Source: Gammaproteobacteria bacterium
GTDB lineage: Bacteria > Pseudomonadota > Gammaproteobacteria > Tethybacterales > G965206325
Length of the DNA stretch: 64,000 nucleotides
Reading direction: 5' to 3'
Assembly (NCBI GenBank): GCA_965206325.1
Contig: OZ242208.1
Span: 1,721,557-1,785,556 of the forward strand
The notes below the pieces were generated by a model that was not told the DNA's origin, ran no database searches, and saw only the letters and a program-made list of their open reading frames with translations. The number at the start of each line of letters is the position of its first letter. Position 1 is the first letter of the stretch. This document shows, piece by piece, positions 11,794 to 19,155 of the stretch. A program made the translations under genes and the position numbers.

Positions 11794-12284
11794 TCATCGG
11801 AGCAACTATACTCCACTTCCCATTGAAATTCTGTGATACCCTGAATTTTATGGAAATTAGTGACTTTGCATTCCTTGCTCTGTGAAGCAAAATAAGCAAT
11901 TGCAGCATCACGATAAACTGGTGGAGTATGACCAAACCCCAAACCTCGCCAAGAGGAAATAATCATAAGTCGATTTTTTTCGGGATTATCAAATATCAGC
12001 CAATTCCTATCATCATGCTCAAATTTGACGCTCTCTATGCCGGAGTAATTGTCGCCAAAATAAGTCAAACCTGAGCAGCCCGATAAGGAACCAGCCATCA
12101 CAATAACGATGGCGAGGGCGGAAAATTTGGCGGGAACGATGGAACGGACGGCGGCGAATCCGGCGACGACCGACTTGCAGACGGCGGAAAAGGCAGTGAT
12201 GATTTTTTCGCCGATGGCGATAACGCCCGACAGAATCAGGCAGAGAATCGCCAAAATGACGGCTTTGGCATTAGCGTTTTCCAT
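11790..12284 (-). CDS. putative lipoprotein (164 aa) carrying the shared signal-peptide module
   Basis: N-terminus MENANAKAVILAILCLILSGVIAIG (shared with the ankyrin protein at 19107) and lipobox-like LSGCSG downstream; lower-GC codon usage. Confidence 0.5.
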   Translation of the reverse strand: MENANAKAVILAILCLILSGVIAIGEKIITAFSAVCKSVVAGFAAVRSIVPAKFSALAIVIVMAGSLSGCSGLTYFGDNYSGIESVKFEHDDRNWLIFDNPEKNRLMIISSWRGLGFGHTPPVYRDAAIAYFASQSKECKVTNFHKIQGITEFQWEVEYSCSDE

Positions 12285-12325
12285 TTTAATCGTCCGTTGG
12301 GTCTGATTAGAAAGAGGCGATTATA
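12226..12325 (-). repeat. promoter + 5'UTR + signal-peptide module, copy A (inverted partner of 19066-19155)
   Basis: 31 nt identical (CCCGACAGAATCAGGCAGAGAATCGCCAAAA) plus ~45 nt of ~85% identity covering TATAAT, RBS and the first ~22 codons. Confidence 0.65.
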
Positions 12326-12363
12326 CGCGCAACCGGGGCGAATTGCCAAATGATTTGGAAAAA

Positions 12364-13128
12364 TCATCCCGCCGTATAGCCGCCGTCTACGGACAGCATT
12401 GCGCCGGTAATGTGTGATTCGCGAGTCAGAAAAATTATCGCGCGCGCGACCTCCGCCGCCGAGGCAATTTCATCCTTCGGAATTAATGCGCGATTGCGCT
12501 GCAAAACTTCTTCGGCGGATTCGGATTCGGAATGACCGGAAACCAGCATCGGCGTGTCAATCGCGCCCGGACAAACCGCATTTACAGTAATTCCCGACGA
12601 TGCATTCTCCAATGCCATCGCGCGCGTCAATTGCACAACGCCGCCTTTGCTCGCGCAATAAGCGGCGAGTCCCGCGCAGCCGACAAGCCCCAATGTTGAA
12701 GCGACATTTACAATCGCCCCGCCGCCGCTCTTTTGCATTTCGCCGACGGCGGCGCGACTCATGAAAAAAGTCCCGTTTAAATTAATGGCGATTGTGCGAA
12801 GCCAGCCGTCGTCCGAAGTTTGCCGCGCGTCGGCGCGAACGATAATTCCGGCGTTGTTTATCAGCACATCCAAGCCGCCGAATCGCTTGACCGATTCGGC
12901 GACGGCGGAGTCGCAAAATGCGGAATCGGATACATCTCCCGATAAAATTTCCGCCTCAGTCAAAGGCGAAATTTTTTCGCGCACCGCCTTTAATTTTTCT
13001 TCGCCGCGTCCGACCAGCAGAATTTGCGCGCCCGCTTCGGCAAAAACGAATGCAATCGCTTCGCCGAGTCCGCCGCCGCCGCCGGTGATTAAGACCGATT
13101 TTCTTTTCATTTTATATTCAGTATACAT
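12364..13128 (-). CDS. SDR family oxidoreductase (FabG-like)
   Basis: TGGGGGLG Rossmann motif and YxxxK active site (YCASK); 254 aa. Confidence 0.85.
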   Translation of the reverse strand: MYTEYKMKRKSVLITGGGGGLGEAIAFVFAEAGAQILLVGRGEEKLKAVREKISPLTEAEILSGDVSDSAFCDSAVAESVKRFGGLDVLINNAGIIVRADARQTSDDGWLRTIAINLNGTFFMSRAAVGEMQKSGGGAIVNVASTLGLVGCAGLAAYCASKGGVVQLTRAMALENASSGITVNAVCPGAIDTPMLVSGHSESESAEEVLQRNRALIPKDEIASAAEVARAIIFLTRESHITGAMLSVDGGYTAG

Positions 13129-13146
13129 TATCGGCGAAATGCGTCA

Positions 13147-16925: not shown

Positions 16926-18014
16926 ATGGAGGAAATGGCAAATATCATTGAATGCCGCAATCTGTGGAAGATTTTCGGCAATCGCGCCAAAGAGGCGATG
17001 TCGGCGATTTTGAATCGCGGCGTTGGCAAGCGCGAGATTCTGGATGAATTCAGCTGCGCCGTCGGCGTGGTGGATGCCTCGTTCTCGGTTTCGCGCGGCG
17101 AAATTTTCTGCATTATGGGGCTTTCCGGCAGCGGAAAAAGCACGCTGATTCGCCATGTCAACCGCCTCATTGAGCCGACCAGCGGCGAAGTTTTCATTGA
17201 GGGGCGCGACATCGGCAAACTGTCCGGCGGCGAATTGTGCGATTTGCGGTCGAGCCGAATTGGGATGGTCTTTCAAAATATGTCTTTGCTGCCGCATCGG
17301 ACGGTGCGGCAGAATGTGGGATTCGCTTTGGAATTGCGCGGGGCGGACAAGCGGGAGCAGCAGAAAATTGCCGACCGAGCCATTGACCAAGTTGAACTTT
17401 CCGGCTGGGGCGATTGCTATCCCGACGAATTATCCGGCGGAATGCAGCAGCGAGTCGGACTCGCCCGCGCCCTCGCCGCCGACCCGGGAATTCTGCTGAT
17501 GGACGAGCCGTTTTCCGCCCTTGACCCGCTGATTCGCCGCCAACTTCAAGATCAATTTTTGCGCCTTTCGCGGACGATGAATAAAACTACGCTTTTCATT
17601 ACGCACGATTTGGACGAAGCGATTCGCATCGGCGACCGCATCGCCATTATGAAAGACGGCGTTTTAGTGCAAATCGGCACGCCCGAAGAAATTGTCACGA
17701 ATCCCGCCGACGATTATGTCGCCGATTTTGTCGCCGACATTTCCAAATTGAATTTAGTCACCGCCCATAAAATTATGGAGCCGGTGGAATCCTACTGCGC
17801 CGAGCACGGCTGCGATTCGCCGCCGACGGAATGCCCGGACGCCTCGCCCGATTCCAATTTGAATCACCTTGTGGATTTGGCGGTGGACACCACCCATCCC
17901 ATCGTCATTAAAGCCGACGGCAAAATGATCGGCGTGGTGACAAAAAAATCCCTCCTGCGCGGAATTCAAGGCAAAAACGAAAACGACAACGCCGAATCCC
18001 AAAAAGCGGCATAA
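16926..18014 (+). CDS. proV: glycine betaine/proline ABC transporter ATP-binding protein with C-terminal CBS region
   Basis: Walker A GLSGSGKST, ABC signature LSGGMQQR and Walker B LLMDE; ProV-type N-terminus. Confidence 0.9.
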   Translation: MEEMANIIECRNLWKIFGNRAKEAMSAILNRGVGKREILDEFSCAVGVVDASFSVSRGEIFCIMGLSGSGKSTLIRHVNRLIEPTSGEVFIEGRDIGKLSGGELCDLRSSRIGMVFQNMSLLPHRTVRQNVGFALELRGADKREQQKIADRAIDQVELSGWGDCYPDELSGGMQQRVGLARALAADPGILLMDEPFSALDPLIRRQLQDQFLRLSRTMNKTTLFITHDLDEAIRIGDRIAIMKDGVLVQIGTPEEIVTNPADDYVADFVADISKLNLVTAHKIMEPVESYCAEHGCDSPPTECPDASPDSNLNHLVDLAVDTTHPIVIKADGKMIGVVTKKSLLRGIQGKNENDNAESQKAA

Positions 18015-18021
18015 TAGAAAA

Positions 18022-19038
18022 ATGGCGGACGAAAAAACATTTGACATCCTGAATCCCTTCGAGACGATCAACTTCCAATTTGAAGATTGGGCCGACGGCG
18101 TAAAAGAGTGGGCGTTTGAAAACCGCGAGTTCTTTCGCCCGCTGCGCGAGCCGCTGGATTGGATGATAAACGGCATTCAGTCGTCACTGCTGGGGATGCC
18201 GCAGGTTGTCGTTTTGCTTCTTGTCGCCCTCATCGCATGGCAGTCGGCGGGATGGCGAATTGCGATTCTCGTCGCCGTCGCCTTGTCCGTGATGGGAATG
18301 CTCGGCGACCGGGCTTGGGACCTCGGCATGACGACCTTGGCCATTGTCGTCTCCGCCGTAATTATTTGCGCGGCTATCGGCCTCCCCTTGGGGGTAATGT
18401 CCGGCAAAAGCGACATCGGCAACGCCGCCATTCGCCCCGTCCTTGACACAATGCAGACCATCCCCGCCTTTGTTTATTTAATTCCGGTGGTGATGCTTCT
18501 CGGAATTGGAAATGTGCCGGGAGTCATTGTTACTGTCGTCTTTGCATTGCCGCCTTTAATTCGCCTGACATCGCTTGGAATCCGCCAAGTTAATCCGAGT
18601 ATGGTGGAAGCGGCAAAAGCATTCGGTGCGACTTCCCGGCAGGTTTTATTCAAGGTGGAATTGCCCCTCGCCGCCCCTTCCATTATGGCGGGAATTAATC
18701 AGACGATTATGCTTTCGCTTTCTATGGTGGTGATTGCATCTATGATTTCAGTGAAAGGATTCGGCAATGAAGTCCTGCGGGCGATTGGCCGATTGGACGC
18801 CGGCAAAGCGATGGTCGGCGGAATCGGCATTGTGATTCTGGCGGTTGTCTTGGACAGAATTACACAAGGTCTCGGCAAATCCGGACGGGAGCGTGGATGC
18901 CGTCATTGGTATAATCAAGGCCCGATTGGCTTGGCGATTCGGATGTGGCATTCGCAAAAATCGCGCAGCGAAAATTTGCAAAGCGAAAAAGATTCGGCGA
19001 TTGCACAAGATGCCCCCGCCGCCATTACGCAAACATAA
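18022..19038 (+). CDS. proW: glycine betaine/proline ABC transporter permease
   Basis: ProW-type N-terminal periplasmic extension followed by an ABC permease core. Confidence 0.85.
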   Translation: MADEKTFDILNPFETINFQFEDWADGVKEWAFENREFFRPLREPLDWMINGIQSSLLGMPQVVVLLLVALIAWQSAGWRIAILVAVALSVMGMLGDRAWDLGMTTLAIVVSAVIICAAIGLPLGVMSGKSDIGNAAIRPVLDTMQTIPAFVYLIPVVMLLGIGNVPGVIVTVVFALPPLIRLTSLGIRQVNPSMVEAAKAFGATSRQVLFKVELPLAAPSIMAGINQTIMLSLSMVVIASMISVKGFGNEVLRAIGRLDAGKAMVGGIGIVILAVVLDRITQGLGKSGRERGCRHWYNQGPIGLAIRMWHSQKSRSENLQSEKDSAIAQDAPAAITQT

Positions 19039-19065
19039 TCCATCGGCGATTGGAAAATTCGGCGG

Positions 19066-19155
19066 TATAATCGCCGCTTTCCAATCAAACCCAACGAAGG
19101 ATTAAAATGGAAAACACGACTATCATCGCCCGCCTTTTGGCGATTCTCTGCCTGA
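19066..19155 (+). repeat. promoter + 5'UTR + signal-peptide module, copy B
   Basis: Reverse-complement match to 12226-12325. TATAAT at 19066-19071, AGGA RBS, ATG at 19107. Confidence 0.65.

Follow-up and report, generated by a model that had tools for sequence, protein, structure and literature searches.

What does it mean when the two arms of an inverted repeat are the beginnings of two unrelated genes? The question is raised by a stretch of 64,000 nucleotides from a Gammaproteobacteria bacterium of the Tethybacterales (contig OZ242208.1, positions 1,721,557 to 1,785,556; hereafter the window), in which one short start module, comprising promoter, leader, start codon and the first codons of a hydrophobic export segment, heads a lipoprotein-like gene on the minus strand and an ankyrin-repeat (ANK) gene on the plus strand, and in which the two copies bracket a 6.7-kb block of other genes. 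A first-pass annotation of the stretch suggested two things: that an expression and secretion cassette has been shuffled onto different cargo genes, and that the repeats might invert the segment between them. We propose, with a probability of roughly 0.7, that each arm is one copy of a conserved 5' end belonging to a small gene family, dispersed and variable between strains, whose parts have been re-joined by recombination. On this reading the inverted arrangement of the two arms is incidental, and no inversion switch is involved.

The repeat and the two genes it heads

A repeat search places the arms at 12210-12326 on the minus strand and 19065-19181 on the plus strand, 117 nt that are 82% complementary and lie 6738 nt apart, and within them is a perfect core of 31 nt. 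The identity of this core was claimed beforehand and is exact: the 31-mer TTTTGGCGATTCTCTGCCTGATTCTGTCGGG stands at 12226-12256 on the minus strand and at 19135-19165 on the plus strand. It encodes (I/L)LAILCLILSG and is the most conserved block of all the copies described below. The 64-kb window holds no third copy, even at three mismatches, and no shuffled control in 100 yields two matches. The other half of the repeat, with -10 box, leader and ATG (12276-12326 and 19065-19115), likewise occurs exactly twice in the 64 kb, and is reproduced twice by 0 of 100 shuffles. Aligned pairwise, the arms become identical at the -10 box (GTATAATCGCC) and remain alike through an A/C-rich leader, the Shine-Dalgarno (SD) sequence (AAGGA/GGACGA) and the ATG; the likeness falls off over codons 4-10, returns in full over codons 11-20 and fades out near codon 25, with a weaker similarity reaching upstream to the -35 region (GGCRATTSG). 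The repeat on two outward-facing genes is thus confirmed (117 nt, 82%, arm against arm BLAST E=2.5e-28), with one correction to its extent as first described: the right arm ends near 19181 and not at 19155.

Together with its promoter, the start module measures about 120-140 bp and includes leader, ribosome-binding site (RBS), ATG and about 24-25 codons. Alignments and a promoter scan place the left copy at 12210-12349 on the minus strand, with a -35 box TTGGCA at 12349-12344, a -10 box TATAAT at 12325-12320, the A/C-rich leader, the ATG at 12284-12282 and codons 1-25 (MENANAKAVILAILCLILSGVIAIG). Its TTGGCA-18-TATAAT is the best sigma-70-like site of the 11-21 kb interval, matching at 11 of 12 positions. 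The right copy, defined by alignment, occupies 19043-19181 on the plus strand and is located 69 nt past the proW stop codon. It has a weak -35 box, TCGGCG (19043-19048), a -10 box TATAAT (19066-19071), an SD sequence AAGGA (19097-19101) spaced 5 nt from the ATG at 19107, and codons 1-25 (MENTTIIARLLAILCLILSGLIAVS); the -10 box is perfect, and the -35 box is too weak for the promoter scan to list the site. With these elements the module would supply transcription through its TATAAT, a translation start and Sec targeting.

The cargo on the left is a gene of 164 aa (11790-12284, minus strand). Its product carries the shared hydrophobic helix at residues ~8-24, the motif GEKIITAFSAV, a second hydrophobic stretch leading to a predicted lipobox, and a mature domain of ~95 aa. 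Hydropathy and pattern matching put the lipobox, LSGC, at residues 67-70, after the hydrophobic stretch and K53; Cys70 is invariant in four homologues, and in P0004 an internal Met would yield a canonical lipoprotein precursor. The earlier label of lipoprotein is therefore plausible as a prediction. The shared segment is however not the lipoprotein signal peptide proper, as the earlier description had it, because the lipobox follows ~45 residues further downstream, behind an extension of which the shared helix is a part. The protein has no match among the families of Pfam and NCBIfam, and homologues form only four clusters among 5.8 billion proteins, with P0001 being identical. The mature domain is modelled by AlphaFold2 (AF2) at pLDDT 70-86, and a Foldseek comparison of the model with the PDB finds no fold match at E<=0.001.

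The cargo on the right (19107-20615, plus strand) is an ankyrin-repeat protein of 502 aa. It matches Pfam Ank at E=3.7e-67 in seven stretches, above the gathering score, and has the tandem 33-residue repeats that define PF00023/PF12796; there are ~8 ANK repeats, visible in the DNA as a 99-nt tandem period over 19332-20126. By inspection and a hydropathy and pattern script, the predicted signal peptide has the classical n-h-c layout, with R9 as the positive charge, then LLAILCLILSGLIAV, then STANA|DS, with a predicted signal peptidase I (SPase-I) site ANA|DS after codon 29 (19193). The C-terminal domain contains four hydrophobic segments by hydropathy, and the protein is probably exported and membrane-tethered rather than freely secreted. 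The description of this gene as encoding a secreted ankyrin protein thus keeps its signal peptide and its repeats, and loses free secretion.

Copies, cargoes and mosaicism among sister strains

Is the module found beyond this one pair? Our comparison set consists of ten homologous loci from sister strains in the ENA, among them L001, L002, L005, L086-L090 and L094, with two extra loci, L003 and L004, for homologues of the left gene elsewhere. The protein collection contains about a dozen circular genomes of the lineage, of ~1.95-1.99 Mb, mostly from one ENA sample, ERZ25069326. In that sample at least six circular genomes of ~1.95-1.99 Mb, at 21x-107x, are accompanied by low-coverage variant contigs, and core DNA is 96-99% identical; since most of the genomes come from this single sample, they represent co-occurring strains. 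GTDB genomes, JGI metagenomes and IMG/VR do not include this lineage: exact and degenerate scans with the core and the leader returned nothing from these three collections, and the closest ProW of a GTDB representative (Roseovarius) is 67% identical.

When residues 1-36 of the ankyrin protein were run with HMMER against all of 1.84 billion representative proteins, four matches proved true, and all four are ankyrin proteins. One (P0034, the L002 gene) is at the proW site, and the other three are at two different chromosomal loci. In L091, from the genome of L088, and in L093 the module ankyrin gene lies between prpC and a gene with a spermine-synthase domain (the prpC-speE locus); in L092, from the genome of L090, it lies between phoD and a gene with an SLT domain. 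In their DNA these three copies have the same TATAATC, leader ...TTTCCAGCCAAAYYCAACGRAGGATTAAA, ATG and signal-peptide codons; upstream of about -55 the sequence is site-specific. The first-pass annotation had allowed that, were further copies lacking and the likeness limited to signal-peptide codons, the repeat would be a simple duplicated signal peptide; a search of the sister strains instead finds the prpC-speE and phoD-SLT copies, with -10 box and non-coding leader conserved. A related front end also belongs to the lipoprotein-like family at another locus. At dut-pfkB, L003 has a lipoprotein-like gene with a similar promoter (GCGATTCG...TATAATCGCC) and a homologous N-terminal helix (LATFTLVLTGILAVDEKIIAAF), and because of this homologous helix and similar promoter the two families are able to recombine. 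A single integrase was encountered, a gene of the Phage_integrase family that lies 5 kb from the unrelated L092 copy.

At the two borders of the block, the sites are fixed and the cargo varies. On the left, between gshB and the first SDR gene, the window, L001 and L002 have the lipoprotein-like gene. L088 has a 232-aa ankyrin gene there, whose promoter and leader are, between -41 and -1, 100% identical to those of the window's left arm, and in L094 the module, GEKIISAFSA, a lipobox (LMSAC) and ANK repeats are combined in one chimera. No module is present at this site in L005, L086, L087, L089 and L090, where the place is taken by a 333-aa gene, by restriction-modification genes or by a gene for a TIR protein. 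On the right, past proW, there are ankyrin genes of two body types that differ between strains in repeat number and C-terminus, while L088 has a 153-aa protein with an N-terminus like that of the lipoprotein-like family, and the ankyrin gene of L090 lacks the leader and begins with another signal peptide. The mature cargoes are of unrelated origin (ANK repeats, the 95-aa orphan domain, the 153-aa protein of L088), and both block borders are variable insertion spots. For the swapped cargo of L088 a double inversion, with palindromic units as outer and modules as inner repeats, was considered and rejected; the L088 cargo genes differ from those of the window.

Other contents of these borders deserve mention. 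The whole gshB-SDR interval (10830-12355 in the window, with equivalents in L005, L086-L090 and L094) is a strain-variable island, holding, according to strain, the lipoprotein-like gene with genes of 100 and 52 aa, ankyrin genes, or methyltransferase or TIR sets. Among the latter are a type II/III-like methyltransferase with a 734-aa partner, and the 333-aa gene beside a TIR-domain protein of >1100 aa. On the other side, L001 has a 1.7-kb insertion (1155-2833) between the proW stop and the ankyrin promoter, a candidate defence pair of a 364-aa AAA ATPase (PADLOC HEC-01A/AbiLi/mad3-like, E=2.8e-23) and a 172-aa mad4-like protein. In L090 the proW-site ankyrin gene (11025-11466) has another signal peptide (MEKITALFKIVPLMVVAVILLGIGVTPSANS|ATHLPDC), and its ATG is just 7 nt past the TATAAT, a leaderless-like arrangement.

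Have the parts of the module moved independently? Fourteen module copies were aligned without gaps from -41 to +72 and split into blocks. The leader block (-41..-13) is of type CTCTTTCTAATCAGACCC in the left arms of the window and L088, and of type TTTTTCC in the left arms of L001 and L002 and also in the right arm of L002 and the left arm of L094. The RBS block (-12..-1) exists in three types, one of which, CGGAGCAGAAAA, is also found at the dut-pfkB locus, in the gene of L004. Codons 2-11 are of an alpha type (ANAKAVI) in the window's left gene and in the ankyrin genes of L005, L087, L092 and, on the right, L094. A beta type (TTIIARL) is found in the window's ankyrin gene, in L001, L002, L086, L089, L091 and L093 and in the left chimera of L094; over codons 1-13 it is 80% identical to the lipoprotein-like gene of L004. 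The gamma type (ASRIAAL) occurs in the left genes of L001 and L002 and in the 153-aa gene of L088.

With two to three variants in each of these blocks, the variants are distributed independently of site and cargo. Past the core the helix has two continuations. In ankyrin members it runs on as ...IAVSTANA|DSHLPDC, of Sec/SPase-I type with predicted cleavage at ANA|(D/A/S)SH; in the lipoprotein-like family the same helix continues ...IAIGEKIITAFSAV, followed by the second hydrophobic stretch and the lipobox. All four combinations of alpha or beta codons with SPase-I ankyrin or long lipobox leader are present, so crossovers must fall in or beside the core. The four-gamete test rejects 97 of the 276 pairs of informative sites, and compatibility is higher between neighbours than when the order of the sites is permuted (5000 permutations, p=0.0008). 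The proposal of an expression and secretion cassette shuffled onto different cargo is thus supported; at the level of sequence, the comparison demonstrates that the module is conserved at four or more loci, that cargo varies where the site is fixed, and that the blocks of the module have been reassorted.

How might such a mosaic arise? The near-identical core of every copy would act as a homology stretch, at which RecA-type homologous recombination or gene conversion would re-join upstream halves, leader types and cargoes, either within a genome or between co-resident strains after DNA exchange. The mosaicism is directly observed; the recombination mechanism behind it we infer. Several points weigh against our reading. 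The extra module loci are documented in sister strains only, the window covering 64 kb of its own 1.99-Mb genome, and the roles of the module in transcription and export are predicted from sequence features. Conservation of the core could come in part from selection on the peptide or on a DNA or RNA signal, rather than from recombinational homogenisation. The mosaicism is compatible with either direction of exchange, with any timing and with a within-genome or an inter-strain route. Finally, the long leader of the left protein, with its predicted lipobox at residues 67-70, has an unusual topology.

Other explanations for the paired arms

One might go further than a re-joined gene family. The module could be a portable adapter and homology handle by which co-resident strains of an uncultured organism exchange exported, host- or phage-facing proteins, forming a chromosomal, population-level effector cassette system in which occasional arm-to-arm events, rare inversions among them, are one route. 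We regard this extension as tentative, and its chances as somewhat better than one in five. If it were true, the cassette system would diversify ankyrin bodies, lipoprotein-like domains and the choice between SPase-I and lipid-anchor leaders.

Might the module instead be conserved for regulation, its -10 box and leader forming a common operator or post-transcriptional site, with recombination a by-product? The leader is kept at unlinked loci, it has two GGA motifs, at the SD sequence and at codon 2, and the erp genes of Borrelia, with their conserved promoter and operator, are co-expressed (PMC10016077). This explanation is nevertheless improbable. The leader RNA matches no Rfam family, and single-sequence folding of the two leaders (z = -1.4 and 0.0, with different folds) gives no structure beyond that of shuffles and none that is shared. 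Mean pairwise identity among eight ankyrin paralogues is 81% in the -10 box and leader, 86% in the signal peptide, 90% in the core and 70-77% in the mature part, so that the leader is less conserved than the coding core; the higher values of the module relative to the mature part also favour our own reading. Moreover, three alternative RBS blocks coexist, and L090 does without the leader entirely. Selection for common family regulation may add to the conservation.

A simpler account is a single partial duplication in the past, static since, which would make the repeat a plain duplicated signal peptide. The window alone, with only two copies and with arms diverged to 82%, would suggest as much. 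One would not expect from it, however, module copies at at least four loci, or other leader and cargo combinations at the same site in other strains, or a right arm in L002 with the left arm's TTTTTCC variant, and the four-gamete and permutation tests indicate repeated exchange. We consider a static duplication distinctly unlikely.

Less probable still is the possibility that the repeats flip the 6.7-kb block, as phase variation or as a structural polymorphism. The arms are inverted, they are 117 nt long, and their 31-nt perfect core is about the minimum length for RecA-dependent exchange, as known for E. coli RecA; furthermore, upstream halves have been exchanged between left-type and right-type copies at some time. 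But the block has one orientation in all ten sister loci, including minor-variant contigs at 3x, 6x and 7x, and it is in low-coverage minor contigs that an alternative arrangement would be expected to assemble separately. That orientation is the same relative to proX, dnaG and rpoD, and to gshB where the flank is visible; proW is beside the threonine-aldolase/proX side, and SDR on the other side, in 10/10 loci. Five strains are without the left arm. Arm pairs within one genome are only 76-85% identical, that is, they are not homogenised. No invertase, integrase or other recombinase family appears in a Pfam scan of the window from 11.8 to 22 kb, or in the precomputed Pfam lists of ten sister loci, 17-21 kb long, surrounding proW and the homologues of the left gene.

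What would a flip achieve? For either cargo it would change nothing, because both arms carry an equivalent complete start module with its own promoter, leader and ATG; there would be no regulatory consequence. Of four features expected of an invertible segment only the flanking inverted repeats are found, and both orientations, a nearby recombinase and an expression switch are not. The suggested inversion of the 12.3-19.1 kb segment is thus not supported by these loci, although rare RecA-mediated inversions, of a kind that only reads would reveal, may occur. Neither is the block a composite transposon or an element bounded by insertion sequences: each arm is the 5' end of a gene, a transposase is missing, and strains without the left arm still have the block in its usual place. 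Lastly, signal peptides and -10 boxes are short and constrained in composition, but a chance or convergent likeness of two signal peptides and two consensus promoters is already refuted by an identity that extends to synonymous positions and to the non-coding leader over 35 nt, by shuffles that never give either sub-pattern twice, and by the BLAST score of the arms.

Neighbouring features, known systems and meaning

The conserved block between the arms takes up 12355-19042; over window positions 12355-19049 each of the ten sister loci shows 96-98% identity and an unchanged orientation. On the minus strand it holds two SDR genes (12364-13128 and 13147-13896), a gene of the FAA-hydrolase family (13898-14746), an epimerase gene (14860-15843) and a gene for a 329-aa protein (15843-16832); proV (16926-18014) and proW (18022-19038) follow on the plus strand. 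This gene content agrees with the first-pass annotation except for an oxygenase, a name that for the 329-aa protein rests solely on a sub-threshold HalD match (E=3.5e-4; 20.5 bits, where the cut-off is 26); its true length is 329 aa and not that of a 515-aa open reading frame (ORF). Between the SDR genes (window ~13126-13143) all sister strains have ~390 bp, with a 121-aa ORF on the opposite strand, that the window does not have.

A 30-nt motif, TTGACT-N17-TACGAT/TACAAT with conserved flanks, has five occurrences in the 64 kb, all of them within 11.3-20.2 kb: at 11320-11348, 11398-11426, 11763-11792 and 14814-14842 on the minus strand and at 20137-20165 on the plus strand. Mostly it lies upstream of small genes or of the FAA-hydrolase gene, like a reused promoter. 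These 30-nt AAATCGTAG...CGAGTCA repeats were also considered as repetitive extragenic palindromic (REP) or recombination sites, a possibility that was rejected; they match TTGACT-N17-TACGAT promoters. One copy lies within the ankyrin ORF, at the junction of the ANK domain and the C-terminal membrane domain. At 20120-20615 the ankyrin paralogues of L001, L088 (left) and L090 end at ...GAK, where the window's gene continues via ...GAKQFDSLTGLYYDLF into a read-through region of ~160 aa with the four hydrophobic segments. It looks like a fusion with a once separate downstream gene having its own promoter-like motif. C-terminal additions vary by member elsewhere in the ankyrin family too (L093 8001-8912, P0035; L091 8001-9611, P0036; L087 8975-9682), and include a retropepsin-like aspartyl protease (Pfam Asp_protease_2 / gag-asp_proteas), a second ANK array and a Cys-rich domain of ~90 aa ending ...GKINCHQ.

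The right cargo site is closed by a unit of ~168 bp in two tandem copies, 99% identical (20590-20759 and 20757-20926, plus strand). The unit contains a long palindrome, GTAGGGCGGGGTGAG...CTTACCCCGCCCTAC, and lies between the ankyrin stop codon and a threonine-aldolase-like gene, whose 354-aa ORF takes its first ATG from the second copy; in sister strains the gene is called at 346 aa. Relatives of the unit, 73-75% identical, stand after the lipoprotein-like homologues at dut-pfkB (L003 10533-10640, L004 10597-10704), and a further copy is at L001 11598-11709. The threonine-aldolase/GntG-family gene downstream of the ankyrin gene is followed by a bona fide ProX (419 bits against a cut-off of 215). 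Far from these genes, at 57808-63924 on the minus strand, is a 2038-aa ORF with no NCBIfam match at E<=1e-10.

Which known systems does the module resemble? In Borrelia burgdorferi the erp genes (ospE/ospF/elp, with their 'upstream homology box', UHB) have one promoter, leader and localisation sequence that recombination, which is frequent among them, has joined to many unrelated mature parts (PMC10016077). This is the closest analogue: here too promoter, leader and ~24 codons are common, the cargo is unrelated and the module is mosaic, and the marks of an erp/UHB-like arrangement are present, namely conservation of promoter and leader at the DNA level, unrelated mature parts and recombination among members. 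Yet erp genes occupy a single allelic position on cp32 prophage plasmids, all with a lipoprotein leader, whereas the present family is chromosomal, at at least four loci, with mostly ankyrin cargo, in a Gram-negative-type genome of 55.7% GC, and the helix common to its members leads either to an SPase-I site or into a long leader whose lipobox is distal. The sequences are unrelated, and cp32 location, erp leader and operator are all missing. By analogy, then, the module family would work like Borrelia erp, and it is not a member of it.

The vlp and vsp genes of Mycoplasma offer a second parallel. They have a conserved 5' untranslated region and signal peptide before divergent, repeat-rich mature regions, and their members recombine; the conserved 5' region with signal peptide and the recombining members are found here as well. 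Those genes, however, encode lipoproteins clustered at one locus and vary in phase by promoter-tract slippage or site-specific inversion, and neither the single-locus clustering nor either switching mechanism is seen here. Invertible DNA is known from Hin- and Gin-type switches, shufflons, the invertible promoters of Bacteroides and Mycoplasma vsa/vsp genes that invert in conserved 5' ends. The present locus is like these in having inverted repeats in or near the 5' ends of genes for surface or secreted proteins, bracketing DNA. It differs in that no site-specific recombinase was found, one orientation prevails in ten loci, and each cargo gene has its own promoter; moreover the bracketed DNA consists of housekeeping-like catabolic and transport genes that are kept in strains without one arm.

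As to the cargo, symbionts and their phages are known to encode ankyrin proteins that carry signal peptides and are secreted, and the ANKs of sponge 'Ankyphages' carry signal peptides, one of these proteins lowering phagocytosis (bioRxiv 10.1101/608950). The present proteins share the signal peptides and form multi-copy, strain-variable families next to defence islands; the window's copy differs from the symbiont and phage ANKs in its C-terminal membrane domain. No phage context was seen, and the module is without a match in IMG/VR. A limited literature search found no description of a promoter, leader and signal module common to ANK and non-ANK families.

What follows for the biology of these bacteria? 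The locus offers a sequence-resolved case of exported, 'eukaryote-like' ankyrin proteins diversifying among close strains of one sample. It also cautions that an inverted repeat around a gene block need not be an invertible switch. A short front end would provide expression and export, and would at the same time mark the junction at which bodies and leader types re-join; as such, the module may help to search this lineage for its exported variable proteins and to list them.

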